This document shows, piece by piece, positions 1,251 to 14,800 of a stretch of DNA of 14,800 nucleotides; the stretch's first letter is position 1; each line of letters begins with the position of its first letter. Source of the DNA: a virus (lineage: Duplodnaviria > Heunggongvirae > Uroviricota > Caudoviricetes). The notes under the pieces were generated by a model that saw only the letters and a list, made by a program, of their open reading frames with translations, ran no database searches and had not been told where the DNA came from. The stretch spans positions 1-14,800 of IMG/VR virus record IMGVR_UViG_2617271085_000020, one strand, 5' to 3'. Both the position numbers and the translations under genes were made by a program.

Positions 1251-3596
1251 TTACATTTTGCGTCTGTTTCCTGATTGAACAATTGATGTGATAATCTTTT
1301 CTTGCTTCTTGAGTTGTTCAGCAAACCAACGCTGATCAGTCACGTTTCCTTGTACGATTACACGAGCATCAATAGGCTGAGTCTTAGACTCGCTTTGATT
1401 ATTCAAGAAGTCTTTCAAATCTCCGTTAGTTCTCTGATCAACGACTCTTTCACCACCATCAAGCAGCCATGTTCCTTCTCTTGGAATTTCAGAAATGCCA
1501 TCGTGAGCCATACCAGTCATATTCACAGATTTCATGGACATAACTTGTCCTAAAACTTGCGCATAACTTGATGCGGCTAATGCGTATCCCAAAGGACCAG
1601 GATAAGTTGCCATTGCTTTAGTTGCAGATTGATATGCGTTTAACATACCATTTGCGATAGCTGTTCCTTTAGCTACTGCAAACGCAGCTTGAGCGGCTTT
1701 AGAGTTTTCACCCGAAATACCGGAAATAACACCAGCCATGCCTTGAGCAAAACCGTTATACATTCCCATTTTCGTTTGAATTTCCATCATAGCAATATTT
1801 TCAGACTGAACAGAATAAGCCTTGTCTAGTCGTCTTTTTTGCTCTAAAAATTGTTCATGCGACAAAAGTCCAGATTCGTACATTTTCTGATTCTGTTCTC
1901 TGAACCTTTCGAACTGTTGATTTAATGCTTCTTGCTCTAATGCCATTCTTTCTTCATCAGTTGCGAAACCAATTGAATTCAAGTTCTGCATATTCACCTG
2001 ATTAGCATCAATCTCTTTAATTGCTTTCATCTTCTCTTGATGTGCAATTTGGAGATTCTCTAACTGTTCGTTGTATTGCTGTTCTGAAATCAAGTTCTGT
2101 TGACGTTTAATATCCAGTTCTTGCTTTTGAATATCGAACATTTGATTCATCGACTGAGTGATAATGCCAATGTCAGCAGGATTAGCCTTAAGACTGTCGG
2201 AGAATTCTTTTGACGAGTTAATCAATAGAGAATTACGACGTTCTAGGAATTGCTCCTGTGAGATTATCCCTTTGTCTCTTAGTTCTTGAAGCTTTGTTAG
2301 TGCTTGCTGAGTCTGATTAATCTGAGAAGCATATGAACGTCCTTCTTGAGCAATAACCGCAACGTCTAACTGTTTCAGAGATTCAACTGCCTGAGCACGA
2401 TCAGCCATCATTTTGTCATAATCAGCTTTGGCTTTAGCCATTGCAGCTTTACGTTCCCTTTCGGCTTTATCAGCAGCAGATTTTCTTTCACGTTCAGCTT
2501 TATCAGCAGCGTCTTTTTCTTTCTTCGCTTTTTCTTCTAAGACTTTCTGGCGAGCCTTATTTGCCATCGTTTCTTGTTCAGCTAAACGAACTAGCTGATT
2601 AACTTGTTTTTTAAGCAACTTGGCATTTTCTGCAATAAACGCCTGACGCTTTTCAATTTCGATTGCTTCAACAGACTTTCCGATATTCTGCACTTGACCA
2701 GAGGACATACCAGAAGGAGTTATACCCTTTTTGTTATTCTCTCTTAGCCATTTCGCAAAAGACGTTTCACTCCAATCAATACCATCCATCCACTCATAAA
2801 GATTGTTAAATTCACGAACTAATGGACTAGCAGCTTCGACCGTGAATTCATTAGTTGCTTTCTTCAAAGAATTCATGTTTCTTTCATATTCTTTGAATTC
2901 GTCGGCAACGTCTTGAGTAATTGAAACTGTTTGACCTTGAATTGCGTTTAATGCGTCTTGGGTATTAGAAAAATTCTGTAATGTTGAAATCAAATGAGAA
3001 CCATCAGACGCCATTGATTCCATTGCGTTAGTAATTTCAGCAGATGATTTACCAGCGGCTCTTAATTGATAGAACGTGTCGATTAATGCTTTAATACCAC
3101 CTTCGGCATCACCAGCATATTTTGCATAATCTTCAAGTTTTAAACCCCATTCTTCTAAGTCGTCGGCAATACCACCACCGCCAGCTCTCAAAGAATCACC
3201 GAGTTTATCCATTGCGTCTTTGTTTAAATCACCGAATTTCTCAACGTCCATTCCGGTAGCTTTGAACGTTGATTGCAACTGTTGAAGCATTTCAATAGAA
3301 ACGCCAGTTGTTGTGTTAACCTGATTTAATACGTTAACAGTTTCAGCAGCTTTATTAATTGCAGCAAAACCAGCACCTGCAACTAACCCCGCTGCACCCA
3401 ATGCGCGTAACGCAGGGGACATACTTTGAATCGTGCTGAGACCATCGCTGAGACCATTTAGTGGACCTGTGAAATTACTAAAAAGACCCTGAGCGGCTGA
3501 ATCAAGTTTATTCAGTTCGTCCATAGAGTCTTTTACAGCAGTAGACAGTCCTTTATTATCTCCGCGAATCTCAACATCATAACGAGAATTCGCCAT
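1251..3596 (-). CDS. Tail tape measure protein (781 aa)
   Basis: Large, strongly coiled-coil protein (e.g. KAKKEKDAADKAERERKSAADKAERERKAAMAKAK) with Gly/Ala-rich hydrophobic segments near both ends (LRALGAAGLVAGAGFAAI; AFAVAKGTAIANGMLNAYQ ... PGPLGYALAASSYAQVLG). It lies immediately downstream of a G/T chaperone-like ORF pair, with its ATG embedded in TAATAATG at the end of the T ORF. The assignment rests on architecture and context, not on a database hit. Confidence 0.6.
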   Translation of the reverse strand: MANSRYDVEIRGDNKGLSTAVKDSMDELNKLDSAAQGLFSNFTGPLNGLSDGLSTIQSMSPALRALGAAGLVAGAGFAAINKAAETVNVLNQVNTTTGVSIEMLQQLQSTFKATGMDVEKFGDLNKDAMDKLGDSLRAGGGGIADDLEEWGLKLEDYAKYAGDAEGGIKALIDTFYQLRAAGKSSAEITNAMESMASDGSHLISTLQNFSNTQDALNAIQGQTVSITQDVADEFKEYERNMNSLKKATNEFTVEAASPLVREFNNLYEWMDGIDWSETSFAKWLRENNKKGITPSGMSSGQVQNIGKSVEAIEIEKRQAFIAENAKLLKKQVNQLVRLAEQETMANKARQKVLEEKAKKEKDAADKAERERKSAADKAERERKAAMAKAKADYDKMMADRAQAVESLKQLDVAVIAQEGRSYASQINQTQQALTKLQELRDKGIISQEQFLERRNSLLINSSKEFSDSLKANPADIGIITQSMNQMFDIQKQELDIKRQQNLISEQQYNEQLENLQIAHQEKMKAIKEIDANQVNMQNLNSIGFATDEERMALEQEALNQQFERFREQNQKMYESGLLSHEQFLEQKRRLDKAYSVQSENIAMMEIQTKMGMYNGFAQGMAGVISGISGENSKAAQAAFAVAKGTAIANGMLNAYQSATKAMATYPGPLGYALAASSYAQVLGQVMSMKSVNMTGMAHDGISEIPREGTWLLDGGERVVDQRTNGDLKDFLNNQSESKTQPIDARVIVQGNVTDQRWFAEQLKKQEKIITSIVQSGNRRKM
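2448..2510 (-). repeat. Near-tandem 30-nt repeat (two copies, 33-nt period) inside the tape measure gene, encoding AADKAERERK twice
   Basis: Plus-strand copies at 2448-2477 and 2481-2510. The peptide is identical in both copies but three codons differ synonymously (gcc/gct, agg/cgt, cgt/aga). Confidence 0.6.
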
Positions 3597-3598
3597 TA

Positions 3599-3946
3599 TT
3601 ATTTCCTATTTTTAGCTTTTGCTTTCGCAAGAAGTTTCGGGTCGAACATAGATTCCATTTTCTTTCTGTTGGCTTCTGCGGCTTTTTTCTGTTCTTCTTC
3701 CAGTTCTTCAGGAGATTTAAAAACTTTATCCTTGATGAACATGAAATCTTTCAGTTTTAATTTCTTCGAACCTTCTTTTGTAATATTTGGATTATTAGCA
3801 AAAACAGAAAATGCTATATGCGCTTGATGTAAGTCATTTACAGCAGGACCTTGAGGTTCAATGAAAGTTTCATATATCCACAGTTCATAGAAATCCTTAA
3901 TACTCATATCCAGAATTTCACGTTCGGTAAAACCTCTACGCAACAT
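3599..3946 (-). CDS. Tail assembly chaperone T-like ORF, probably expressed as a G-T fusion by -1 frameshift
   Basis: The ORF is in the -1 frame relative to the upstream 98-aa ORF. Its reading frame is open upstream of its own ATG as far as 4093, overlapping the last ~37 codons of the G-like ORF. There is no Shine-Dalgarno sequence in front of its ATG (aaattcagaaccATG). It sits immediately upstream of the tape measure gene and has a basic, Lys-rich C-terminus. Confidence 0.45.
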   Translation of the reverse strand: MLRRGFTEREILDMSIKDFYELWIYETFIEPQGPAVNDLHQAHIAFSVFANNPNITKEGSKKLKLKDFMFIKDKVFKSPEELEEEQKKAAEANRKKMESMFDPKLLAKAKAKNRK

Positions 3947-3981
3947 GGTTCTGAATTTGAATATTTTATAAGGATTCTGCC

Positions 3982-4278
3982 TTAATTCTTTTCCACAGCG
4001 TGAGTTTCTTCTTTCATAACAGAAGCAGCAGAAACAGCAGCAGAAAGTTGAGCGCGAACGGTGGTATAAAGTTGTTTGACTTGTTCGATATTTTCAAAAA
4101 CAGGGGATCCGTCTTCGTTCTCAATGCATTTCAGAATCATATTATCGGTCTGGTCTTCCATAAAAAAGAATTTACCAAATTCTTCAACGGTCATTGCGCG
4201 AACATAAAATTTAAAACCTTTGATTTCTACAACTTCTCGTTTTGCTCCGAGAGCGGCGATCATTTCTTCGAATTTCAT
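3982..4278 (-). CDS. Tail assembly chaperone G-like protein (98 aa)
   Basis: Small acidic ORF directly upstream of the T-like ORF and tape measure gene, preceded by an AGGA ribosome-binding site. This is the canonical G / GT / TMP arrangement of long-tailed phages. Confidence 0.45.
   Translation of the reverse strand: MKFEEMIAALGAKREVVEIKGFKFYVRAMTVEEFGKFFFMEDQTDNMILKCIENEDGSPVFENIEQVKQLYTTVRAQLSAAVSAASVMKEETHAVEKN
3988..3994 (-). promoter_or_regulatory. Candidate -1 ribosomal slip site G GAA AAG near the end of the G-like ORF
   Basis: mRNA reads ...gct gtg gaa aag aat taa. A -1 shift at GAA-AAG would read GGA-AAA and continue in the open T frame. The heptamer is not a canonical X XXY YYZ motif, so the exact site is uncertain; the shift could occur anywhere in 3985-4093. 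Confidence 0.2.
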
Positions 4279-4323
4279 TTCTTAATCCTATAGTTAATTT
4301 AAATGTTTACTTTATTTATGCCG

Positions 4324-4356
4324 AAAAAGGAGCTATCACGAAGATAACTCCTTTTG
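4324..4356 (-). terminator. Stem-loop (8-bp AAAAGGAG/CTCCTTTT stem with inner 4-bp TATC/GATA stem) between the 106-aa gene and the G-like gene; possible terminator or attenuator
   Basis: Inverted repeat read directly from the sequence. The U-run forms part of the stem, so terminator strength is uncertain. It is followed on the minus strand by cATAAATAaag, which resembles but does not match a T4 late promoter (TATAAATA). Confidence 0.3.
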
Positions 4357-4357
4357 A

Positions 4358-4678
4358 TTACTCGATGAATTGGAAGAAATATCCAATCATTCTGAATCCT
4401 TTATGAATATATTCTTGCTGAAAAATACAAACAGCATTTTGTTCAAAGAAAGGACCATTGATTTCTACGATTTCATTATTCTTGAAATGATAACGAGGTT
4501 TCTTTTTCTGAGTGCTAACAATAAAAACGTTTTGGTCGTTTTGAAGATTCCTTTTTATACGAGTTTCTTTCACCAGTTCAAAGCTATAAGGAATAGTCAT
4601 CGACTCTGGATTGTGCTCTTTGATAAAAATAGAATCGAGTTCGTCAACACGATATGTTTCAAAATCATTTAAGTTCAT
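4358..4678 (-). CDS. Hypothetical protein (106 aa from the ATG at 4678)
   Basis: The ORF track begins at 4711, but the ATG at 4678 is preceded by a strong ribosome-binding site (aaAAGGAGAcaaaATG) and avoids overlap with the upstream gene. No family recognised. Confidence 0.5.
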   Translation of the reverse strand: MNLNDFETYRVDELDSIFIKEHNPESMTIPYSFELVKETRIKRNLQNDQNVFIVSTQKKKPRYHFKNNEIVEINGPFFEQNAVCIFQQEYIHKGFRMIGYFFQFIE

Positions 4679-4694
4679 TTTGTCTCCTTTTCTT

Positions 4695-5234
4695 TTATTT
4701 AGTAGCAACACGACGAACCGTTTTTATGATGTCATTACCAATATCAGTCCAAGAACCAATAGATTTCTTACGAGTTTGATGACGTTTGAAAATAGCAATA
4801 ACTCTTTTGTTCTGTTTTTTAACATTTGTCTTAATCAGAATCGTTCTGTTAATACCATCTTTCTTTTGTTTGACTGCCTCTAGGTTTCTACGAGTTTTTA
4901 ATCCTGGAATGTTACCGAACTGGTTAGTCGAACCTCTTACCCCTGTTGGAACATATTTGTTAATCGGACTGTTATCATCTATCAAGTGTGAAAGATAATT
5001 CGCCTGAACGTCTTTGATAAAGATTCTGTTAGTTGTTCCTTCTTTATCAATCTTAAATCTGAACCCAACGGCGTTCTTGGTGAAATTCACAGGTCCTTCA
5101 ACACGTCGATTAATCTTTCGTTGTAACTCAACAGAAGCGAGTTTAGACGCTTTAGTTACTCTTTTAGAGAACTGATCAGATTCTTTTATTCGCCATTTGT
5201 CTAAGTCTTTTTTAACTCCACCAAGTTTCGCCAT
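4695..5234 (-). CDS. Hypothetical highly basic (Lys/Arg-rich) 179-aa protein without cysteine
   Basis: Complete ORF whose start overlaps the stop of the upstream 70-aa ORF at 5234. The composition suggests a nucleic-acid-binding or internal virion protein. No family recognised. Confidence 0.45.
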   Translation of the reverse strand: MAKLGGVKKDLDKWRIKESDQFSKRVTKASKLASVELQRKINRRVEGPVNFTKNAVGFRFKIDKEGTTNRIFIKDVQANYLSHLIDDNSPINKYVPTGVRGSTNQFGNIPGLKTRRNLEAVKQKKDGINRTILIKTNVKKQNKRVIAIFKRHQTRKKSIGSWTDIGNDIIKTVRRVATK

Positions 5235-5446
5235 TACATACTCCCAAATGAAACAATTGCAAAGATATATTTCATAGCTTCATCAAGAGGAACGATAGGA
5301 AGAACTATTCCGAAGAAACTCAATGCACACGGAACAACGATGTAATTATAAACAGCCATTGCAATCATCGCGTAAATGAATTTCTTTTTAAAGTCCCCTG
5401 TCATTGCTGGAAGTTTCTTGAATGCAGCTTTCATTTTTTCAATCAT
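5234..5446 (-). CDS. Small hydrophobic membrane protein (70 aa), holin-like in size and topology
   Basis: Basic N-terminus (MIEKMKAAFKKLPAMTGDFKKK) followed by two to three hydrophobic segments. It overlaps the end of the nuclease gene by 8 nt. It lacks the charged C-terminal tail typical of holins, so the holin call is tentative. Confidence 0.4.
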   Translation of the reverse strand: MIEKMKAAFKKLPAMTGDFKKKFIYAMIAMAVYNYIVVPCALSFFGIVLPIVPLDEAMKYIFAIVSFGSM

Positions 5447-5894
5447 ACTTCACCTTTAAATTTTGTTTGTACAAGTTAATGAGAGATTTTTTATCACCAA
5501 CTGGATTTATGTCCTCTGCTAATAAAGTCTCTTTCATTTGCTTTAACGTCATTTTCGAAAAGCGCTTTGATAGGTCTGTTACAAGTTGAGGATGAATAGG
5601 ATTTTTAGAATTATCTTTTTCGAGATAAGTTACCAATCTTTTTAAAAAATCAATATATTCGATGTGCTTCGCTAAACCTGAATACATGAATTGATGTTTT
5701 AATCTGCCCTCAAGGACGTTTGCCTGTGCGAGTAATAATCCTCGGCATCGTCCAGCTTGAGAACCATCAAGAGCGTGGTCATGGTCTAAATGGGCTTTAT
5801 TAACATCGGTAATTTCTATCCCAGTTAAAGCACATCTTTTATTTTGTTTATCAAAAAGGGTTTTCTTGTAATTATTTATTTCTTTTCGTTTCAC
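5439..5894 (-). CDS. Endonuclease VII-like (T4 gp49 family) junction-resolving nuclease, 151 aa, GTG start
   Basis: The motif KAHLDHDHALDGSQAGRCRGLLLAQANVLEGRLKHQF aligns with the T4 Endo VII catalytic core (ANHLDHDHELNGPKAGKVRGLLCNLCNAAEGQMKHKF, recalled from memory). The downstream ...VTYLEKDNSKNPIHPQLV matches ...LTYLKSDYTQNNIHPNFV. The catalytic Asp/His/His/Asn/Glu positions are conserved. Confidence 0.6.
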   Translation of the reverse strand: MKRKEINNYKKTLFDKQNKRCALTGIEITDVNKAHLDHDHALDGSQAGRCRGLLLAQANVLEGRLKHQFMYSGLAKHIEYIDFLKRLVTYLEKDNSKNPIHPQLVTDLSKRFSKMTLKQMKETLLAEDINPVGDKKSLINLYKQNLKVKYD

Positions 5895-6168
5895 TGTCTA
5901 TCACCGCTAATCGAATTTCGATTTCTCTAATTCGATTGTCTATACTTTTCATATCACCTTTAAACTCCTTAAACGAATCACGAACGTTGGTTAATTCAGT
6001 ATTTGCGTTTGAATCGGTCGCACTATTAAGAGCAACGCTTTTCTCGATTTCAGATAGTCTCTGTTCGATTTTTAAAGCGTCGGCTTCCATTGCGTTCTTT
6101 TGAGACCAAATCCATCCAAAGCCAGCGCATAGCAGTCCCGCGAAAGAAATGATGGCTTCAACACCCAT
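5872..6168 (-). CDS. Membrane-anchored coiled-coil protein (98 aa): one N-terminal transmembrane segment then a coiled coil; possible spanin, holin or antiholin-like protein
   Basis: N-terminus MGVEAIISFAGLLCAGFGWIW is hydrophobic; the remainder is heptad-like and charged (EADALKIEQRLSEIEKS ... IREIEIRLAVIDSE). Preceded by an AAGGAG ribosome-binding site. Function not established. Confidence 0.4.
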   Translation of the reverse strand: MGVEAIISFAGLLCAGFGWIWSQKNAMEADALKIEQRLSEIEKSVALNSATDSNANTELTNVRDSFKEFKGDMKSIDNRIREIEIRLAVIDSETKRNK

Positions 6169-6229
6169 TTTCTTTCTCCTTTTAAGACCTCCATGTCTTA
6201 TTTAGAAAAACGGATTTGGGGGAAAGAAA

Positions 6230-9200
6230 TCAAACTTTACTGATAAAATAAACTGCCCTTGAGGCTTCTGCTCGGTTTAATTCGACCGTATAAGTTAAAT
6301 CAACAGCTTGTCCCGCTTCGATGTATGCGACACCACCGTTTGAACCGTTTAGAGATTGAGATTGAACGTAAACAACTTCTTGGCCGTTTGAGAGTCTTAA
6401 CCACGCTTTGCCACCACCCCAACCAGTACCACCAGAATAAGTTCTTCCGGCGATTGCAACGTTAGGAATAGCAATCATTCTTCTCCAACCAACAGCAGGA
6501 ATATGAACAGATCCCCACGGATCGACAAATCCCATTTTGATAACGTCACCTTCGATTCTGTCAGCGTAAACAGTCCCTGTGAAATAACCAGAACCACCTC
6601 TGATTTCTCCTGAGAAATAACCAGAATCAGCTTGAATATTTCCTTTAACTGTAACGTTTTGGAATGAAGCCCAACCATCTTTTCTAATTGTCCATCCTTG
6701 AGTACCACCGGAAGGAACCCAGTTATCAGAGGATATTTCCCAGGCAATTTGTGCTGAACCGATTTGAGCATTACCAATTTTCGCTGTTGTAATAGCACCG
6801 TCTTGAATCTGCGCGTTATTAATTGCAGCATTAGCAATTTTGGCATTATCAATTGCAGCATTAGCAATTTGAGCATTACCGATCGAAGCATTGCGAATCA
6901 TCGCGCTTTGTAAATAAACTCTATCATCTGCGACCATGAACGGTGGAACAGCATTAGGAGCAGTGTTATTATTTGTTATAGCAATCTTATCAGCGTTAAA
7001 AATAATGCTTGAGGCTTTATTTCCCGCAGCGTCCTTAGATGCCAACATACTAATACCAGCTACGACACCATCGGCGTTTGTAGAAACAGCCCATTTACTG
7101 TTAACAGTTCCTGCTAAATCGTCAACGCTTGCTTTTGCTTCGGTAGAAACAGTCGCGACCATATCCGTAGTTTCAGCTTTTAATTGGCTGATTTGTGAAG
7201 CTGTTGCAGCACGATCATCCGCTTGGGTTTTCTCAACTTCGGTTATAGCAGAGTTTAACTTACCGTCAAAATCAGCCGTTTGAATCGTAATAGCCTGATT
7301 GATAGCGCCTTGCGTTTCATTCGTTATCTGAGTATGCAACGTTGTATTAGACGTGCTGATCTTCTGATCAATCTCGGTTGTTACTTCCTGCTTAGTTGAT
7401 GTTATCTGAGTATCGGTATAAGCATTTGCGAGTTCTAAAGCGTCCTCGATAGCACCATCAACTCGTTGGTCTAAATCAAGCAAGTCGTTTAACTGGTCTT
7501 TCATATCTTCTGTCCATGGAATATCCCATTTCATGTTGATATAAACTGATTCAGTCCAAACTAATTGGTCTTGTCCGAAAACGTCATACCATGCAGCTCG
7601 AACATAATATTCACCGTCAACTAACGGGAAGTTTTCAATGAACTGGCTAGAACTCAACTGAACTTGATTAATGTCAGTGAATTCAGGATTATTTGAAACT
7701 TGAATAACAGTTCCAGAATAATCAGGTGCAACACTCATTGGATCGTTCCAAGAACACATCAATAATCCAGGACCATTCGAAGCAGTAAAACCGATTATTG
7801 CAGGAGCTTGATTATTTCTTACGATTAATTCAGTAGGTTCAGATCTTAAACCTGAATAACCAACAGCAGTGATTTCAAATTTAATTTCACGACTGATACC
7901 GTTTTGCTGGTTCATTCGTAAATCATAAATGAAGCTCAAATCTTTAGTTCTGTATACAACAGGTCTTTGTCCAGTGATTTTGATTTCGTAATACTGAAAT
8001 ACTTGTTCGAAAGTCTGTTGAACGCCGTCAACTTCGAATTTCTCTGAACTCTGATTATCCCATGCAAATTCAAATTGCGTTTGTTGCGTAACGTTGTTAT
8101 TAAACTCAGAGTTAACAAGTCTTAGACCACGAACTTTAGGCAGATTATAAACGACATCAGGGTTAACATTCATTGAATAAACCCATTCAGACGTATAGAA
8201 AACACCAGAAGCACAAACACGAATATCATATTTCTGCAATGGGTCCATGTTCATAATCAAGTAAGAATTTCCTGATGTGAATCCTGCTTGAGTCCATTGG
8301 TTTGTTCCTGCAACTGCATATTGAATATAAAAACCTGAACGGTTAAAATCTTGCTCTGAATTCCATGAAACTTTAAAAGTTCTTCCTAAAGCTGTTTCTG
8401 AAACGCTTGAAACTTTAAGATTCGTAGGAGCAATCAAGTATCCTTTGTTTGGTACGTTTGAACCGTTGTTATTAGGATCTTTCGCATAGTCTAAATCGGT
8501 ATAAACTTCTTCAATATATTCAGTAGCTGTGATGTTAACGATACCAGCAACGCCCTTATTCATTGAACGACTAACGTTAGTAACGCGCCATAACGAATCT
8601 TGCAAATTTAATTCATCAAAGTTAACTCTGATAACATCCCAAACTTGAATAGTATAGGAATCAGGAGAACTAAAGCTGATAATCTGTTTTAACAGTGATT
8701 TGTTACGTTCGATTGAAGCAAGTTTGTCCAATTGGTCTTTAGATTTCACAAAACGATAATTAACATCTTTCGCGATAATACGTTTATCATATTGAATTGT
8801 TTTGTCGGTCGTCACGTCAGATGGATAACGAAGAACTTGCTCGGAATAATCGATTGCAGGATCTTGATATTTCACGTTCAGCGTATTGTAATATTCCTCT
8901 GAACCACCTGAATTCAACGAAACTGAACCAGCAGAAATATTTTCTTCATCGAAATCAAATGAAACAACATCAGGACCATCGATTTTGCAATAAACTTGTC
9001 CGAATGATTCGAAAATCATTCCGTTAAAAGCACCTGCAAGCTGAGTTAAGTTTTCTTTAAACGTTGCGTTAGGGTCTGTTGCACCATCGGAAAATAGTTG
9101 ATTGCTTAAAGCATAATTTGCAGCAGCTTTAAAACTATCAAGGTTAATTTTATCAAGTGAAACTCCTAATCCGTATCGTTCGTTCGTCAGATAATCGACA

Positions 9201-9910
9201 ATCTGACTTGCACCGTTGCGAGATGGAACGATTTGTCCCGTGTTTAAGTCAGTAATCAAACGTCCTCTAACATCAACAGCGACCTGACTGTTAGGTTGTA
9301 GGATATCAGCTTGGTTTTGTAAGTCTGAATTTCGTTTCTGCATTACGATACAGCAAGAAGCGACACCGTTACCTGTAGCAGAAACAGGCCAGCCACTTGG
9401 GTCATTTCCTAAGTATTGTTCAGCAAGTTTGAAATGATGACCTTGTTCTTTACCAACAGAGAATTCAACTTGCACATAGTCTTGATATTGAGAAACGATT
9501 GAACCTCTTGAAACAATTCCATCACGATAAACGGCATCATTCAGAATACGCTTGTTATCGATATAAAGGTTTTTAAAGCTATCAACTTCACCTTCGGCAA
9601 TTGCAAAAATTTGCACCAAATAAGTCGTATCATTTCCTACAGCATCCCAAACGTTAATTGTTCCTGTGCGTTGTTCACCGTAGATAATCGGTAATACAGT
9701 TGAAGGATCAGACGTTGTTCCTAATGTTGTTGCGGTATCACTTGTATTAAATCGAGGAACAGTTGGTTGCATAGCTGTTGACATTAAAGCGGAAACAGCA
9801 GCAACAGCAACACCAATACCGATTGAAATAGCTAATGCCATCCCAGCGGCATAAGCAGCAAGACCAGCAGAAGCACCAGCGATGATTGCACCAATTGCGA
9901 CAATAGCCAT
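6230..9910 (-). CDS. Central tail fibre / host specificity protein, lambda gpJ-like, with an N-terminal gpI C-domain-like segment (1226 aa)
   Basis: The N-terminal 90 aa (hydrophobic Gly/Ala-rich stretch then ...STVLPIIYGEQRTGTINVWDAV) resemble the lambda gpI C-terminus (...NVLPVLYGEMRVGSRVVSQ). The remainder has fibronectin-III-like segments and a C-terminal region like lambda J (PPFMVADDRVYLQSAMIRNASIGNAQI ... GEIRGG ... DRIEGDVIK versus PMFVAQGNQIFMNDVFL ... TLRAEKIVGDIV). Lambda sequences are recalled from memory. Confidence 0.75.
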   Translation of the reverse strand: MAIVAIGAIIAGASAGLAAYAAGMALAISIGIGVAVAAVSALMSTAMQPTVPRFNTSDTATTLGTTSDPSTVLPIIYGEQRTGTINVWDAVGNDTTYLVQIFAIAEGEVDSFKNLYIDNKRILNDAVYRDGIVSRGSIVSQYQDYVQVEFSVGKEQGHHFKLAEQYLGNDPSGWPVSATGNGVASCCIVMQKRNSDLQNQADILQPNSQVAVDVRGRLITDLNTGQIVPSRNGASQIVDYLTNERYGLGVSLDKINLDSFKAAANYALSNQLFSDGATDPNATFKENLTQLAGAFNGMIFESFGQVYCKIDGPDVVSFDFDEENISAGSVSLNSGGSEEYYNTLNVKYQDPAIDYSEQVLRYPSDVTTDKTIQYDKRIIAKDVNYRFVKSKDQLDKLASIERNKSLLKQIISFSSPDSYTIQVWDVIRVNFDELNLQDSLWRVTNVSRSMNKGVAGIVNITATEYIEEVYTDLDYAKDPNNNGSNVPNKGYLIAPTNLKVSSVSETALGRTFKVSWNSEQDFNRSGFYIQYAVAGTNQWTQAGFTSGNSYLIMNMDPLQKYDIRVCASGVFYTSEWVYSMNVNPDVVYNLPKVRGLRLVNSEFNNNVTQQTQFEFAWDNQSSEKFEVDGVQQTFEQVFQYYEIKITGQRPVVYRTKDLSFIYDLRMNQQNGISREIKFEITAVGYSGLRSEPTELIVRNNQAPAIIGFTASNGPGLLMCSWNDPMSVAPDYSGTVIQVSNNPEFTDINQVQLSSSQFIENFPLVDGEYYVRAAWYDVFGQDQLVWTESVYINMKWDIPWTEDMKDQLNDLLDLDQRVDGAIEDALELANAYTDTQITSTKQEVTTEIDQKISTSNTTLHTQITNETQGAINQAITIQTADFDGKLNSAITEVEKTQADDRAATASQISQLKAETTDMVATVSTEAKASVDDLAGTVNSKWAVSTNADGVVAGISMLASKDAAGNKASSIIFNADKIAITNNNTAPNAVPPFMVADDRVYLQSAMIRNASIGNAQIANAAIDNAKIANAAINNAQIQDGAITTAKIGNAQIGSAQIAWEISSDNWVPSGGTQGWTIRKDGWASFQNVTVKGNIQADSGYFSGEIRGGSGYFTGTVYADRIEGDVIKMGFVDPWGSVHIPAVGWRRMIAIPNVAIAGRTYSGGTGWGGGKAWLRLSNGQEVVYVQSQSLNGSNGGVAYIEAGQAVDLTYTVELNRAEASRAVYFISKV
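6816..6875 (-). repeat. Tandem 30-bp direct repeat (two copies, about 27/30 identical) in the J-like gene, encoding the N-A-x-I peptide repeat region
   Basis: The 20-mer aattgcagcattagcaattt occurs at 6821-6840 and again at 6851-6870 with similar flanks. The protein here reads IANAAIDNAKIANAAINNAQI. Confidence 0.6.
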
Positions 9911-10326
9911 TATTTTCTCCTGTTAAAAATTAATTCGTATTCAAAATCTTTTACGTTTATCAAAGCGTATTTGTTGTTGTGTTCAATAATTGCTTTGTCG
10001 TTAAAGACAATCGACGCAACGTAATAAACTCGGCGTCTGTATGTTTTTTTAATTAAGACAATTGACCCTGTTTCGATAATGTTTGATTTTTCGAAATGCT
10101 TTTCACAAGCTTCTAAAACGTTATTAAAACCTGTAAGTTCTTTGCAGTGTTTTAAACCCGATTGAACAGAGTCATATTTGGAAATAAGTTTGCTTGCGTA
10201 ATCTGTTCCGCAAGTCATATCGATATATTCAGCGACAAGGATATTACAGTCGTTTTGACCGTATTTGTGTTCTTTGTTGATATAACGATTTAATAATTTT
10301 GATAAGTCAGCTTGAAATTTAAACAT
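9910..10326 (-). CDS. Lambda gpK-like tail assembly protein, NlpC/P60 (papain-like) domain only
   Basis: The motif KYGQNDCNILVAEYID resembles the lambda K catalytic-Cys region (HGVTDCYTLFRDAY), with a downstream His (IIEHNN). The stop overlaps the J-like start (TAATG at 9908-9912). The likely start is the ATG at 10326 (ribosome-binding site GAGGTG); the ORF track starts at GTG 10338. There is no JAB/MPN half. Confidence 0.45.
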   Translation of the reverse strand: MFKFQADLSKLLNRYINKEHKYGQNDCNILVAEYIDMTCGTDYASKLISKYDSVQSGLKHCKELTGFNNVLEACEKHFEKSNIIETGSIVLIKKTYRRRVYYVASIVFNDKAIIEHNNKYALINVKDFEYELIFNRRK

Positions 10327-10360
10327 TTTAAGATTCACCTCTGACTTTATTTAGAGCCAA

Positions 10361-10386
10361 AAAAAGACCCCGTTAGGAGTCTTTTA
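10361..10386 (-). terminator. Rho-independent terminator on the minus strand (AAAAGACUCC-UAAC-GGGGUCUUUU followed by UUU)
   Basis: On the minus-strand RNA the stem includes one G-U wobble pair and is followed by a U7 run. On the plus strand the same stem has a C-A mismatch, so it is oriented for the minus strand. It sits 20 nt after the 162-aa gene stop and directly before the gpK-like ribosome-binding site. Confidence 0.6.
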
Positions 10387-10405
10387 AGATTGAACAATAA
10401 AACGA

Positions 10406-10894
10406 TTAGCCTTCTGGAGTTGGAGCAGTCAAATCAACCAAAGCTTCGGCAATTGGACCACCATCAACACTCAGAGTCATAGCCTGTGCAGCAACTTCTG
10501 ATTCACCACCGGAATAAGTAGCGCTTGACAGGAAACCGTTATACATTTTTGCAACACCGATTTCTTTAGAAGCATCCATCCAATAAACGATTTTGAACTG
10601 ACCACGTTTACCATCTTCCGCAAGCTTATAAAGCTGATCATGAATAGACCCAGGAATATAGTTAACAGTCAAATCGATATCAGGAACAGAACCACGACCA
10701 ACCAGTTTACGGCTGTATTTGTGAGTAAAGTTAGGAGCAACGATTACCTCACGTTCGATACCAGTCGTAGGAAATGCGCCAACTTCAGGAACTTCTACGA
10801 ATTTCTCTGAGTCGATATCTTTGTTCAATACGTCAGAGTTGAAAAATACACTGACGTAAGAGCCAGCGAAAATATCATATGCTTTATCAGCCAT
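10406..10894 (-). CDS. Probable abundant virion structural protein (162 aa), possibly a major tail / tube-like protein
   Basis: Complete ORF with an AGGA ribosome-binding site, flanked by a stable hairpin upstream and a strong terminator downstream, which suggests high expression relative to neighbours. A loose resemblance to small siphovirus tail tube proteins (...KLAEDGKRGQFKIVYW...) is from memory only. Confidence 0.3.
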   Translation of the reverse strand: MADKAYDIFAGSYVSVFFNSDVLNKDIDSEKFVEVPEVGAFPTTGIEREVIVAPNFTHKYSRKLVGRGSVPDIDLTVNYIPGSIHDQLYKLAEDGKRGQFKIVYWMDASKEIGVAKMYNGFLSSATYSGGESEVAAQAMTLSVDGGPIAEALVDLTAPTPEG

Positions 10895-10936
10895 TTTAAA
10901 TATCCTTTATTAAGTAATAACGTTATTATTTAGATG

Positions 10937-10956
10937 AAAGGGACTTTCGTCCCTTT
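10937..10956. other. Perfect 8-bp hairpin (AAAGGGAC / GTCCCTTT) in the fibre to 162-aa intergenic region; GAAA tetraloop on the minus-strand RNA
   Basis: Read directly from the sequence. On the plus strand it is followed by a T-rich tract (terminator-like for antisense transcription). On the minus strand it lies upstream of the 162-aa gene and could be an mRNA processing or stability element. Confidence 0.3.
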
Positions 10957-10959
10957 TTA

Positions 10960-13815
10960 TTATTTAGCAAGTTCTAAAGCATCAAGACGCGCTTTTGTTT
11001 CTTTCAAATCAGCACTTAATTCCTTGATAGCATTAACAAGCAACGCGTTTACAGCAGCAGAGTTAACACCAAGAATTTCATCTTCGCCGAAAGAACTAAC
11101 AGCTTCTGGTAATACTTCTTTCAGTTCTTGAGCAATAATACCTGCTTCGCGAGTTACGAACGAATATTCAGTTTCTTTCAAATCTGATTTCTTATCGTAA
11201 ACGTAACCAGTTAACGTATTAACCTTATCAACTGCGTTTTCGATTTTTTCAAGATTTGATTTCAGACGTTTATCGGAAGTTGAAACCCAAGAAACAGCAT
11301 GGGCAGCACCATCAACGCTTCTAAATGTAAAGTTTGCACCTCTAACATGAAGCATGGCTTCATAAGCGCCGCCTGCTGGATTATAAATGTCCATTCCAGC
11401 AGACCATTCGGTTCCCCACTGAACAGATTTCCAAATGTTAATGCATTTATCAGTTGAACCCGCTTCTACGATCATTCCAGCAGGACGTTCACGCCATGCT
11501 CCCCAATCAGCCCAGCCATCAACTTGACCAACAATTAATGCGTTTGCGCTGCCTGTTCTGATATTATGAACATATACGCCACGAGAATCGTTTGGAGAAG
11601 AAACGCGCATAGTGGTTAATGAATTAATTCCCGCGTGGTCGAATGTTGCAACATGAACGCTATTTGCCAGAATTTCTAAGTTTCCATCAGTTCTTTGACG
11701 AATACCGGTGTCACCATCACCAAACGCAATTGAGTTTCCGCCTAGCACGTTAAGAGTATTAACACCGAAACTTGTTATCTGTCGGGTTTCAACTTTAGGA
11801 GTATCAACAATATTCGGTGATGCGAATCTTCCGTTTATATCAAATTCATAAATGGACTGATTTTTTCCGGCCATCGCAGCATGGTTCGGTTCAGAAACAC
11901 GTATTACACCTTTTCCGTACTGTGCACCGGCTCGAATTATTCCCATTTCAAAACGAGTATGATATCCATGCTGAGTTGACGTATTTTGCATTGCATATCC
12001 GGGATAATAATCGCTTTCGCCTGGAATAGACCCAAAGTCCAGTAAAACCGGAGGCGGCTGTTTCCATTGATCAGCCCAAGCGTGACTGTTTGTTGCTGCC
12101 CACTGAACACCACTAATTTCAACTCGGTTATCAAGAACTGCCATCGTGTTAATACCATTGGCATTAAGTTGAAGATGATTCTGTTTCAAAATAACAGCAG
12201 ATGATTGACCGGTGACCATGTTATTCTGGAAAAGAATGTCTGTATTCGCATCGGTCTTACCTAGCAACCAAGAGTTTTCTTTACCGTCGTTTTGTCCGCT
12301 AATATAAGAAGATCCGGCAGTTGCACTTATAAGCTTATACGCAGGACCGCCGCCATGTGCCTCAAATCTATTAGTTTTAAAGTTACCAGTTTCGTTCAGT
12401 GATGCAATCCAATTATCTGCACCAGTGCCATGCCACCATGTTAATGCTTGTGCGTATTTAGGATTATCGTGATGTGCCCATGCTAGTTCGTGCCACCATG
12501 AAGCTTCACCACATGCTCTAAAGTTTCGCATACGGTTAAAAGCTTGCGTAGATTGAGGCCAGTTGACCATGGAATAAATGTCATGCGTTCCGGGTGACTT
12601 ACCAGAAGTCACTATTCCCGCAAGAGGATGGGTCTGTCCACTTACTCTCAGACCATCAACTGAATCAATAAACGTAGCACCAGTTCCTCTCAGATAGTTA
12701 TGATATTTACCGGCATTTGACAATCCGAAATAAGTGTATCCGTCTCCGATTCCGTTTCCATCGGTCGTTGTATCGATTTTAAGCAAAGATGTGCCAGCAG
12801 GTGCCAGACCGTTAACGTTTCCTGCACCATCGCTTCTATATCTAATCGTAACTTGACGATTAAAAAAGTTTTGAGATCCTGCAACACTTGATACAACAAC
12901 ATTATTGGAATAAGTGTCTAACCAACCGTCTTCTCTCCATTTAAATCCTGTATCGGAATCTCCCATCATAATACTGTTAGCACCTAAACTATTAGGATTA
13001 GGACCCAAGTTAATATAATTTGCTTTGATACCGTCGGCATTCAATTTAGGAACAGTCAAGTCGCCAGTCATTGTGTCACCAGCTTTTGAAACCTTGGTAT
13101 TAATCATGTCGGTCAAAGTCTGATTATCAACAGTCAAACGATCATTAACAGCTTTAATCTTTGAATCTGCGTCGGCTTTGTTAGCGTCAACTTTCGTGTT
13201 AATAGTCGTATTGTTTAAATCAATCTTAGCGTTAAGACGATTGTCCAGCTCGGTGTTCGCTTCGGTCTGTTTCGTGTCGTTAGCGTTAACTTTATTCTCT
13301 AAAGCTGTCAGATTCGTTCCTGTTGCGTCGGAGACTTTCTTAATCTCTGAATCAACATAGTCTTTACGCGTTGCGTTATCAGCTTCAATTGGTGCAACTG
13401 GTAAACGTAAACGACCATTAACGAAATCATAAGTTGAATAACCTGTTGAAGCGTTTTTACCGTTCGAAACAACAACTTTCAAAGAGCCTTCGGAATCAGT
13501 TTGCTTTTCAGATTTCAATTCGACTTTTGCTTTACCGTGTTCATCTTCAAAAACGATAGAACTTTTCTCGGAATTTTTCAGAGAAATATCAGTGTCAGAT
13601 TTTAATTTATTTGCTTGAACGTCACCGATAAAAGTCTGTCCACCTTCGACGACAGAATCAGCACCATTACCGATATTAACGATTTCAGTTCCACGTTTCG
13701 TGAAAATGCTTTTATCGGTCATGTTAATAGCAATTTCACCTTCAAGCATTTTTGAAGCATCAGGTTTACGTCCTGCGACATCAGTCCTATAGTGTTTGAC
13801 TTTGTTATTAGCCAT
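10960..13815 (-). CDS. Long tail fibre protein (951 aa) with T4 gp37/gp36-like N-terminal region and C-terminal S74-type intramolecular chaperone domain
   Basis: N-terminus MANNKVKHYRTDVAGRKPDASKMLEGEIAINMTDKSIFTK resembles T4 gp37 ([41 protein letters not shown]). Internal TRKDYVD and GDTMTGDLTVP motifs are fibre-typical. The C-terminus (...TSDKRLKSNLEKIENAVDKVNTLTGYVYDKK ... GIIAQELKEVLPEAV ... LVNAIKELSADLKETKARLDALE) matches the autoproteolytic chaperone of T5 pb1 and K1F endosialidase-type fibres. T4 sequences are recalled from memory. Confidence 0.8.
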   Translation of the reverse strand: MANNKVKHYRTDVAGRKPDASKMLEGEIAINMTDKSIFTKRGTEIVNIGNGADSVVEGGQTFIGDVQANKLKSDTDISLKNSEKSSIVFEDEHGKAKVELKSEKQTDSEGSLKVVVSNGKNASTGYSTYDFVNGRLRLPVAPIEADNATRKDYVDSEIKKVSDATGTNLTALENKVNANDTKQTEANTELDNRLNAKIDLNNTTINTKVDANKADADSKIKAVNDRLTVDNQTLTDMINTKVSKAGDTMTGDLTVPKLNADGIKANYINLGPNPNSLGANSIMMGDSDTGFKWREDGWLDTYSNNVVVSSVAGSQNFFNRQVTIRYRSDGAGNVNGLAPAGTSLLKIDTTTDGNGIGDGYTYFGLSNAGKYHNYLRGTGATFIDSVDGLRVSGQTHPLAGIVTSGKSPGTHDIYSMVNWPQSTQAFNRMRNFRACGEASWWHELAWAHHDNPKYAQALTWWHGTGADNWIASLNETGNFKTNRFEAHGGGPAYKLISATAGSSYISGQNDGKENSWLLGKTDANTDILFQNNMVTGQSSAVILKQNHLQLNANGINTMAVLDNRVEISGVQWAATNSHAWADQWKQPPPVLLDFGSIPGESDYYPGYAMQNTSTQHGYHTRFEMGIIRAGAQYGKGVIRVSEPNHAAMAGKNQSIYEFDINGRFASPNIVDTPKVETRQITSFGVNTLNVLGGNSIAFGDGDTGIRQRTDGNLEILANSVHVATFDHAGINSLTTMRVSSPNDSRGVYVHNIRTGSANALIVGQVDGWADWGAWRERPAGMIVEAGSTDKCINIWKSVQWGTEWSAGMDIYNPAGGAYEAMLHVRGANFTFRSVDGAAHAVSWVSTSDKRLKSNLEKIENAVDKVNTLTGYVYDKKSDLKETEYSFVTREAGIIAQELKEVLPEAVSSFGEDEILGVNSAAVNALLVNAIKELSADLKETKARLDALELAK
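10963..11277 (-). other. Peptidase S74-like intramolecular chaperone domain (C-terminal ~105 aa of the fibre), predicted self-cleavage at the Ser preceding DKRLK
   Basis: Conserved S-D-x-R-x-K motif and the downstream amphipathic helices characteristic of the family. Confidence 0.6.
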
Positions 13816-13867
13816 TTCATTCTCCTGTTGAAAAATAACATCCTTGTTATTTAATTAATCAAATTTT

Positions 13868-14800
13868 TTAGAATGTTCCGGCGTCTAACGTTTCACCTTG
13901 AGCTACTGCGTTAACATCAACAGGAGTTGGTTTATTCGTAGGAGAATAAACTTCTTGACCTTTGACTTTCACCGAATCAGATTGAATTTCTTTAGTATTT
14001 AGATTGTCGATTTCAACAAGCGGGGCGTTTATCTTTTTGCGTACAGTCAAATAATCCTGAATCGTCAGTGAACCTTGTAACGTTCCTCCCGTAATAGGAA
14101 GCGCTCCAATGTCTTCTGTTGTAGGACGTTCAAGTTCTGTATAGACCTTAACCCAATTCGATTCATTGATTGTCCCGTCGGGATTCATCTGCTTGTTACG
14201 AATACGTATGCTAGGATTACCGATACTTGCTCCAATCAGTTCCCATCCTTGACCACTTGGATGCTGAATTGCCATAGCAGACGTGCCAGAGTTATATGGA
14301 TTATCAGTGTTAACCCCATCAACAGTTATCCATCTGTTACCAGTCAAAAGACCTAAATCTTTTACACCTTCGATTTCTTCTGTTCCTGCACCAACACCAT
14401 AATCGCCAACGTTTAACGGAGTTGAATACTCAGCGTAACCTGAAAATAATTTACCGTCTGGACTTAAAGTATAGTTGTTAATTACAGCGGAACTCTCAGA
14501 CCCGTTTGTTTCTTTCTTCGTAACATAAGCATCAAAGATATGATAAAGACCGGATTGTCTTTCTCTTGTATGTTCTGAATCGACAACATAAAGATTTCTA
14601 AATCGAAGTTTTTTCTTATTCATTAACGCATTGTCTAACAATTCGGAAACTTCATCATCAGATTCAAATATGCTTAAAACAGTGTTATCAATTGTTTGAT
14701 CACCTGATAATTTAACTTCAAAATCTTCTCGATAATCTTCGAGTGATTGAACTTGATTTGAAAATCCTATTACCGGAAAAGCAGCAACATTTTCAGTTTC
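13868..14800 (-). CDS. Tail fibre protein, 5'-truncated by the window edge (C-terminal 310 codons present)
   Basis: The frame is open from the stop at 13868 to position 14800 with no stop codon, so the ORF-track start (TTG at 14641) is only an internal codon. The C-terminal motif TEDIGALPITGGTLQGSLTIQDYL resembles T4 proximal-fibre (gp34) C-terminal motifs (SDIGALPSDNATMGNLTIRDFL, from memory). Confidence 0.6.
   Translation of the reverse strand, partial: ETENVAAFPVIGFSNQVQSLEDYREDFEVKLSGDQTIDNTVLSIFESDDEVSELLDNALMNKKKLRFRNLYVVDSEHTRERQSGLYHIFDAYVTKKETNGSESSAVINNYTLSPDGKLFSGYAEYSTPLNVGDYGVGAGTEEIEGVKDLGLLTGNRWITVDGVNTDNPYNSGTSAMAIQHPSGQGWELIGASIGNPSIRIRNKQMNPDGTINESNWVKVYTELERPTTEDIGALPITGGTLQGSLTIQDYLTVRKKINAPLVEIDNLNTKEIQSDSVKVKGQEVYSPTNKPTPVDVNAVAQGETLDAGTF

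Follow-up and report, generated by a model that had tools for sequence, protein, structure and literature searches.

An Endonuclease VII Homolog without the Structural Zinc Site in the Late Operon of an Escherichia coli Prophage

The DNA analyzed here, referred to as the window, is the stretch of 14,800 nucleotides from position 1 to position 14,800 of the IMG/VR virus record IMGVR_UViG_2617271085_000020 and comprises the end of a prophage in an Escherichia coli chromosome. A gene on its minus strand (5439..5894) encodes a 151-residue homolog of endonuclease VII (Endo VII; gp49) of phage T4 in which the catalytic residues are all retained and three of the four ligands of the structural zinc are replaced. 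With a probability that we put at about 0.6, this protein is an active T4-type junction-resolving nuclease that lacks the zinc site and is expressed with the late genes. From the homology, residue pattern, conservation, purifying selection, and gene context described below, we infer a zinc-free fold, dimerization, junction cleavage, and a role in DNA packaging.

Homology and Domain Architecture

In a phmmer search of the PDB, the 151-residue product matched T4 Endo VII (1e7d) with an E value of 1.3e-27; residues 9-147 align with residues 11-153 of the T4 protein with three short gaps, and the identity to gp49 is ~39% over 142 residues. The product scores 42.2 bits against the Pfam family Endonuclease_7 (PF02945; gathering cut-off, 23.6) and 26.9 bits against the C-terminal dimerization domain Endonuc-dimeris (PF09124; cut-off, 22), and it matches PHROG 423, "endonuclease VII," with an E value of 4e-35. 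An earlier note, made from the sequence alone, had described an Endo VII-like nuclease, and the PDB and both Pfam matches establish the protein as a true T4-type homolog. The two Endo VII domains account for the entire 151 residues, with no extra domain detectable with Pfam. As in T4 gp49 (PDB 1en7, 1e7l, and 2qnc), which has the same length and two-domain layout, the motifs HLDHDH, R-G-L-L, N, and E-G are present in identical form. Endo VII-like sequences occur once in the window and once in 50 kb of a related prophage. The features of the protein, all on the minus strand, are as follows.

5616..5873 (-), nuclease domain, Endonuclease_7, residues 8-93 (Pfam)
5454..5597 (-), dimerization domain, Endonuc-dimeris, residues 100-147 (Pfam); the model superposes on the whole T4 Endo VII chain
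5823..5834 (-), zinc knuckle remnant C21-A-L-T24 (T4 C23-L-I-C26); first ligand kept, second replaced by Thr; codons TGT and ACT
5775..5792 (-), catalytic motif H35-L-D37-H38-D-H40 (T4 H38-L-D40-H41-D-H43); identical to T4, with D, H, and H invariant in all homologs
5745..5747 (-), Cys50 on β-strand 2 (T4 V53), an "extra" cysteine, placed by alignment to T4
5709..5732 (-), start of the ββα helix, L55-A-Q-A58-N59-V-L-E62 (T4 C58-N-L-C61-N62-A-A-E65); codons CTC and GCA

Catalytic Residues and Zinc Ligands

The equivalents of all six catalytic residues of T4 Endo VII are present, with their codons checked in the DNA: Asp37, His38, His40, Arg51, Asn59, and Glu62 correspond to T4 D40, H41, H43, R54, N62, and E65. 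The earlier note had read the HLDHDH motif and the following N..E as conserved and was correct in this respect. It had also reported that three of the four zinc ligands are replaced, and the strings on which it relied, C-A-L-T, LAQA, and GRCRG, are all found in the protein. The published pattern of the Endo VII family is a central DHDH motif with CX2-4C and CX2C on either side, which together hold a single structural zinc (PMC6083498). These flanking motifs are absent from the window protein, where T4 C23 corresponds to Cys21, C26 to Thr24, C58 to Leu55, and C61 to Ala58, leaving one ligand of four. At the start of the ββα helix both ligands are lost and the metal-binding Asn and Glu are kept. 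The alignment of the ligand region is unambiguous, and no shift rescues the cysteines, because the columns concerned lie between the invariant anchors Q-N-G-x-C and R-G-L-L-x-x-x-N. In neither the Pfam alignment nor that with gp49 are the four cysteines conserved, and the protein does not belong to a different HNH family. As read from this alignment, the replacements Thr24, Leu55, and Ala58 are residues unable to bind zinc, and the sequence argues against a stoichiometric structural zinc in this protein.

The cysteine in the GRCRG string, which the earlier note had regarded as newly appeared at a non-homologous position, is Cys50. It is indeed present, at the position of T4 V53, but it is a common variant of the family: 16 of 44 zinc-bearing full-length homologs have Cys at this position, where it alternates with Val and Ile. 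The proposal that Cys50 is a compensating novelty was rejected, as stated, on account of this frequency.

A Zinc-less Clade under Purifying Selection

Two database searches gave 84 homologs, which were grouped into clusters at 90% identity. The window protein and 22 further clusters, ~23 in total, lack the zinc site; they come from genomes of Escherichia, Klebsiella, Enterobacter, and Pantoea and from other assemblies. Their ligand pattern is C-[TS]-..-[LIVTHC]-[AV]. The other complete T4-type sequences recovered (44 of 44) all have CCCC or CCHC, so that the clade of the window protein is the only site-less lineage among them. Equivalents of D40, H41, H43, R54, and N62 are invariant in every complete homolog, including all 23 zinc-less clusters, and the equivalent of E65 is Glu in 22 of these clusters and Asp in one. 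Cys21 is invariant in the zinc-less clusters (23 of 23) and Cys50 is present in 20, the other three having Ile or Thr; both cysteines have been maintained through synonymous changes between TGT and TGC.

Some members of the clade depart from this arrangement. The Klebsiella aerogenes forms (P0015, which is L003 8001-8492, P0016, and L019) carry Ile at V53 and Cys at C58, whereas their nearest relatives have the reverse (Cys and Ile); this apparent swap, in two clusters, leaves exactly two cysteines. P0019 has Thr at the V53 position and no second cysteine nearby. P0021, P0022, and P0026 read C-T-C-H-V, an arrangement C..C..H with three potential ligands, and look like intermediates in the loss of the site. 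The codons fit a path from C through H to L or I at T4 position 58 and from C through V to A at position 61, which would give a plausible ordering of the changes.

The best neighbor-joining (NJ) tree, which was built with the ligand columns removed, places the zinc-less sequences in a monophyletic group, with weak bootstrap support (19-30 of 100) and a sister group that is only tentative. The nearest outgroups in this tree are zinc-bearing and have Cys at the V53 position: P0023/24 read CCCHC, and P0025 and P0052 read CCCCC. Because the nearest zinc-bearing sequences carry it, Cys50 appears to have been inherited from an ancestor of the five-cysteine type, subject to the weak support for their placement. 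P0023/P0024 (from Serratia), P0052 (from L015), and L030 resemble the window clade in having Cys at V53 and are among its nearest NJ relatives, the sister placement again being weak, but they differ in retaining CCCC or CCHC.

The zinc-less clade is clearly under purifying selection. The ratio of nonsynonymous to synonymous substitution rates (dN/dS) is 0.19 between the window gene and its closest relative, the ortholog in E. coli PSS-15 (L001), and 0.09-0.22 for the pairs with a finite dS; in distant pairs the proportion of synonymous differences (pS) is 0.66-0.88, which is saturated or nearly so, and that of nonsynonymous differences (pN) is 0.22-0.41. The reading frame is intact in every locus that carries a zinc-less gene, across four genera. 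Purifying selection, invariant catalytic residues, and the single copy argue against a decaying or redundant paralog. The earlier note had left the choice between a protein stabilized in a different way and a diverged or inactive paralog; the single copy, the dN/dS of 0.19, and the invariant D-H-H-R-N residues (DHHRN) favor the first and speak against the second.

Predicted Structure

AlphaFold predictions were made for the monomer, with metal not modeled. With an alignment of 71 sequences that included zinc-bearing homologs, the mean predicted local distance difference test score (pLDDT) was 95.9. A Foldseek search with this model returned T4 Endo VII (1e7l) first, with a template modeling (TM) score of 0.89 and a root-mean-square deviation of 1.8 Å over 150 columns, and nothing else of significance; in this comparison with the crystal structure, which had been suggested earlier, the mixed-alignment model resembles the T4 fold. 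Several non-ligand columns set the zinc-less clade apart, namely T4 R28 (Leu or Ile), W87 (Phe), K71 (Gln), Y/F108 (Leu), and position 59 (Ala, Gly, or Pro). To judge from the alignment, these clade-specific changes are candidates for compensation.

Loss of the Zinc Site in the Wider Family

When 1.84 billion cluster representatives were searched exhaustively, 174 matched, and the best 150 of these were examined; the use of a zinc-less query biases the ranking somewhat. The numbers of Cys or His ligands in the best 150 of the 174 representatives are as follows.

Four ligands, 63 representatives
Three ligands, 3 representatives
Two or fewer ligands, 79 representatives
Incomplete sequence, 5 representatives

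D-H-H-R-N is kept in 78 of the 79 representatives with two or fewer ligands, and the remaining one has a gap at the second His. The "DNA endonuclease VII" of the cultured jumbo phage Pectobacterium phage CBB and the homolog in Vibrio phage 2.275.O have Asp at the C23 and C58 positions; these two are the only cultured phages in which zinc-less forms were confirmed. Zinc-less enzymes had also been suspected in cultured phiKMV-like phages from the sequence P0074 (CTHA), which matched them, a suspicion that was dropped when the protein of Xylella phage Paz was found to be CCHC. Loss of the zinc site is recurrent in the family, because 79 of the 150 nearest representatives have two or fewer ligands and cultured phages carry the D..D form, and a zinc-free version of the nuclease fold is, from these sequences, evidently viable. 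CBB, Vibrio 2.275.O, and many metagenomic clusters resemble the window protein in combining an intact DHHRN with incomplete ligands; unlike the window clade, these other low-ligand members are independent lineages, with ≤45% identity and replacements of the types D..D, C..S, C..H, C..E, etc. Endo VII is counted among the zinc-knuckle His-Me fingers, and the knuckle is missing in many His-Me fingers (PMC5714182).

Gene Position and Exchange at the Locus

The endonuclease open reading frame (ORF) overlaps the upstream gene for a 98-residue protein by 23 nucleotides and the downstream gene for a 70-residue protein by 8 nucleotides. It starts with GTG, the homologs beginning with ATG at the equivalent position, and is preceded by a Shine-Dalgarno sequence within the end of the upstream gene.

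5900..5905 (-), Shine-Dalgarno sequence GGTGAT, 5 nucleotides before the GTG (read from the sequence)

The location of this element and the overlap are consistent with translational coupling of the endonuclease gene. No promoter or terminator signals above chance were found in 4600-6400. Given the overlapping starts and stops, the Shine-Dalgarno sequence, and the lack of promoter or terminator signals, we regard the gene as a member of the late operon.

All the chromosomal prophages of this type that were examined (in E. coli, K. aerogenes, Pantoea stewartii, and Enterobacter) have the endonuclease gene after a gene for a J-like tail-tip protein, and it is found at the tail-tip junction in 15 of 16 IMG/VR contigs that share the gene for a 179-residue minor tail protein. 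These viral contigs came from a scan with that neighboring minor tail protein, which in genome contigs found nothing. The junction is occupied by a zinc-less gene in 12 of the 16 (including L027, of the C-T-C-H-V form) and by a zinc-bearing gene in the same orientation in one; two have a zinc-bearing gene in the opposite orientation, and in one the gene is precisely absent. In L015 and L030, zinc-bearing copies follow the tail-tip gene and precede a gene for a 180-residue minor tail protein. In a Serratia prophage that shares the terminase, portal, and capsid genes, a zinc-bearing relative is followed directly by a small zinc-ribbon gene and the GpA terminase gene. This copy beside the terminase had prompted the idea that relocation to the tail module was coupled to loss of zinc, which the zinc-bearing genes of L015 and L030 rule out. 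The position is not tied to zinc loss, since zinc-bearing relatives occupy the same place. The location in a tail cluster, described in the earlier note as unusual, is real and conserved in the lineage, but comes down to membership in the late operon.

The place of the upstream neighbor is filled by a gene for 89-105 residues in all related loci (155 in L015), and the downstream 70-residue protein has homologs in L004, L028, and L031. Two small proteins with putatively membrane-spanning segments (98 and 70 residues) thus bracket the endonuclease, and both persist in L031, which has no endonuclease. In L016, which carries P0026, a SegE-type GIY-YIG gene of opposite orientation comes after the Endo VII gene, with an HNH_3 gene further on (7591-8346, 13102-13581), and this stretch is a region rich in free-standing nuclease genes.

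Proposed Function and Alternatives

The protein would be a functional single-copy phage Endo VII that combines a ββα-metal (His-Me finger) domain with a C-terminal dimerization domain of the T4 style and, by homology, should be a dimeric, Mg2+-dependent, structure-specific nuclease. Made along with the late structural proteins because its gene lies inside their operon, it would cut Holliday junctions and other branches from replicated and recombined concatemeric phage DNA, and the removal of branches would let the GpA-type terminase fill heads. T4 gp49 cleaves T4 DNA before packaging (PMC5714182); the window protein is likewise phage-encoded, and by analogy a packaging-linked role would be expected of it. 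An association with packaging is also seen in the Serratia prophage, where the zinc-bearing relative is placed just upstream of the gene for the GpA terminase. The enzyme would have no canonical Zn(Cys)4 treble-clef site, as Thr24, Leu55, and Ala58 replace three thiolate ligands and Cys21 alone is left. The junction of knuckle and helix would presumably be held by side-chain packing rather than by metal, with contributions from Leu or Ile at the C58 position, Leu or Ile in place of R28, Phe in place of W87, and Leu in place of Y/F108.

Several observations weigh against an active zinc-independent resolvase. Mutants of T4 Endo VII with C23S or C61S have no activity and fail to bind DNA, and the combination C26S/C58S also abolishes activity (Giraud-Panis 1995, cited in PMC6083498); because these mutants are inactive, the substitutions in the window protein would kill the T4 enzyme unless compensated. 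When 21 zinc-less sequences alone were supplied to AlphaFold, as a shallow alignment, the mean pLDDT fell to 70.6, with values <50 for residues 32-59 of the ββα core. The confident model is therefore not independent evidence, as it relies on the zinc-bearing sequences in its alignment, and the zinc-less-only run neither supports nor refutes a metal-free fold because its alignment is shallow. Literature searches turned up no description of a zinc-less Endo VII. At the locus, L028 and L029 carry an inverted, zinc-bearing copy, in L031 the endonuclease is missing and the two small flanking genes adjoin each other directly, and the divergence of the endonuclease is out of step with that of the adjacent minor tail gene (84% versus 57% identity in L017, for example). 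The gene is accordingly an exchangeable accessory of the late region and not part of a fixed core. Such behavior is compatible with a helpful, non-essential debranching enzyme and leaves some room for a selfish gene.

A selfish or accessory free-standing nuclease lodged between the tail-module genes, either of the homing type with an Endo VII motif or aimed at host or competitor DNA, would account for this variation in the state of the junction among the 16 contigs (12 zinc-less, one zinc-bearing on the same strand, two inverted, and one empty), for the independent divergence in L017, and for the SegE-type GIY-YIG gene that adjoins the relative in L016. Homing endonucleases with an Endo VII motif are known: F-CphI shares with the window protein the DHHRN motif and a free-standing gene between conserved phage genes (PMC6083498). 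In F-CphI, unlike the window protein, the motif is C-terminal behind another region, CX2-4C/CX2C is kept, and cleavage is site-specific (PMC6083498). The full T4 Endo VII architecture, dimerization domain included, is retained in the window protein, which has no added DNA-recognition domain comparable with the extra N-terminal region of F-CphI (PMC6083498). Moreover, an intact copy of the gene occurs in all examined chromosomal prophages of this type, in four genera and with saturated synonymous divergence. A resolvase would be expected to be optional for a temperate phage in a host that supplies RuvC, and Rap of phage lambda is dispensable too. We regard a selfish nuclease as unlikely.

It is also improbable that the fold is still cross-linked, by a Cys21-Cys50 disulfide or by a reduced metal site completed by water, other residues, or the partner subunit, in which case the protein would not be truly cofactor-free. 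Retention of Cys21 in 23 of 23 and of Cys50 in 20 of 23 zinc-less clusters through synonymous codon changes points in this direction, as do the transfer of the cysteine from the V53 to the C58 position in the K. aerogenes clusters, with exactly two cysteines kept, and the three potential ligands, C..C..H, of P0021, P0022, and P0026. Against this, Cys stands at the V53 position in 16 of the 44 homologs with a full site, in exchange with Val and Ile, a pattern expected of a buried hydrophobic position; P0019 has Thr there and no second cysteine nearby, and a pair of thiolates by itself is not enough for a stable structural zinc site. Reliance on a disulfide is unlikely for a cytoplasmic phage enzyme. 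A more specific and quite speculative proposal is that the site is not simply filled with hydrophobic residues, that the conserved Cys21/Cys50 pair may hold the knuckle to the β-hairpin and helix, either in a disulfide that responds to redox state or in a new metal site between residues or subunits, and that the series C-C-C-H-C, C-T-C-H-V, C-T-C-L-A records a hand-over of ligands by way of the spare fifth cysteine. If true, this would be a structurally new way to stabilize a His-Me finger and a path by which a junction resolvase could become independent of zinc in nature, possibly favored under zinc scarcity in the host.

A catalytically dead or marginally folded protein, whether a decaying copy or a derivative that only binds DNA, is very improbable: the loss of DNA binding and activity on equivalent changes of the T4 cysteines (PMC6083498) and the low confidence in the catalytic core of the AlphaFold run with the shallow zinc-less alignment would fit it, whereas purifying selection is clear, the metal-binding and general-base residues are all invariant, the frame is intact at every locus in four genera, this is the only Endo VII copy, so that there is no redundant paralog, and DHHRN is intact in 78 of the 79 other low-ligand representatives among the best 150 of 174.

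The Prophage and Its Late Operon

Positions 1-256 of the window are E. coli core chromosome from the ldtB-ybiT region, with 99.6% identity to >5,400 complete genomes, and the remainder of the window is a late-gene block on the minus strand. The segment 1-256 marks the junction of prophage and chromosome, which makes the tape-measure gene the last phage structural gene before host DNA. A related prophage in E. coli PSS-15, which also adjoins ldtB, aligns with 77% of the window at 82.7% identity; its genes run in the order GpA-type terminase, portal, protease-capsid fusion, fibers, and tail genes. The genes of the late operon are as follows.

Position 1, minus strand, fiber proteins of 257 and 951 residues, with gp37-trimer and S74 chaperone domains
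Position 2, minus strand, major tail protein, 162 residues
Position 3, minus strand, DUF6950 protein
Position 4, minus strand, J-like tail-tip protein, 1226 residues
Position 5, 5872..6168 (-), 98 residues; hydrophobic N-terminal segment and predicted coiled coil
Position 6, 5439..5894 (-), endonuclease VII homolog, 151 residues, stop included (ORF list; PDB and PHROG 423 matches)
Position 7, 5234..5446 (-), 70 residues, two hydrophobic segments; PHROG 2024
Position 8, minus strand, minor tail protein, 179 residues
Position 9, minus strand, 117-residue protein
Position 10, minus strand, two tail-assembly-chaperone-like proteins
Position 11, 1251-3596 (-), tape measure protein, 781 residues

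The order of the tail module, 1251-14641 (-), is unusual in running from fibers, major tail protein, DUF6950 protein, and J-like tip through the endonuclease cassette to minor tail protein, chaperones, tape measure, and prophage end. L015 keeps the canonical order of tape measure ... tip, endonuclease, lysozyme. In L008 and L009 a gene for a large serine recombinase follows that for the ~105-residue protein, and the genes for the chaperones and the tape measure are absent from that end. The point at which integration splits the late region seems to differ between relatives.

The region 10960-13815 (-) encodes domains of T4-type long tail fibers (gp36/gp37 trimerization and the S74 intramolecular chaperone), and the Enterobacter relative L007 has a gp38 adhesin at 1-794. 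The prophage is a mosaic with myovirus-style fibers on a siphovirus-style tail (lambda-J-like tip and GpA-type terminase). The tape measure (1251-3596, minus strand) contains a SHOCT motif at residues 432-458 (Pfam, E = 4e-10), which is faintly seen also in the tape-measure genes of relatives. Between the chromosome junction and the tape-measure gene lie two overlapping plus-strand ORFs, 357-827 (156 residues, with a hydrophobic C terminus) and 824-1180 (118 residues). They have no Pfam or PADLOC match and are absent from L001, which has ~330 bp in this place; they could be a pair of cargo ("moron") genes. PADLOC gave no defense-system match beyond noise for the endonuclease and its neighbors. 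Nucleotide searches of phage and plasmid collections found no close relative of the window, and the only match to a cultured phage was 10575-10762, 188 bp of the major tail gene, with 76% identity to Escherichia phage DCP80 (141 kb).

Significance of the Zinc-less Form

T4 Endo VII is the textbook example of a zinc-stabilized resolvase and is killed by mutation of the outer cysteines. The window protein differs from it in lacking three of the zinc ligands (C26 to T, C58 to L, and C61 to A), and its gene, unlike that of a T4-like myovirus, lies in a temperate siphovirus-like prophage with a lambda-type GpA terminase, after the tail-tip gene. A maintained clade with ~39% identity to the T4 enzyme and without three of its ligands is a natural experiment on the replacement of a treble-clef knuckle, and its members are candidate zinc-independent resolvases that could serve in biochemistry or diagnostics, such as in assays of mismatch or junction cleavage. 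A metal-free version of a structural zinc motif is also known from the "zincless finger" of NEIL1 and mimivirus Nei, which are Fpg/Nei glycosylases. Their fold and chemistry are unrelated, and the likeness to a zinc-less Endo VII is one of analogy only. Loss and gain of the zinc finger within the Fpg/Nei family have been discussed (PMC3188539).

The zinc-less form is a real but modest variant of T4-type Endo VII, modest because loss of the zinc site is common across the wider family, although such a form was not found described in the literature searched. The effect of the loss on phage biology is probably small. As about half of the nearest representatives (best 150 of 174) lack it, the zinc motif should not be regarded as diagnostic for Endonuclease_7. 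The finding refines the picture of an established enzyme family and does not point to a new system, and the loss of a structural zinc, a familiar event in evolution, is recurrent here.

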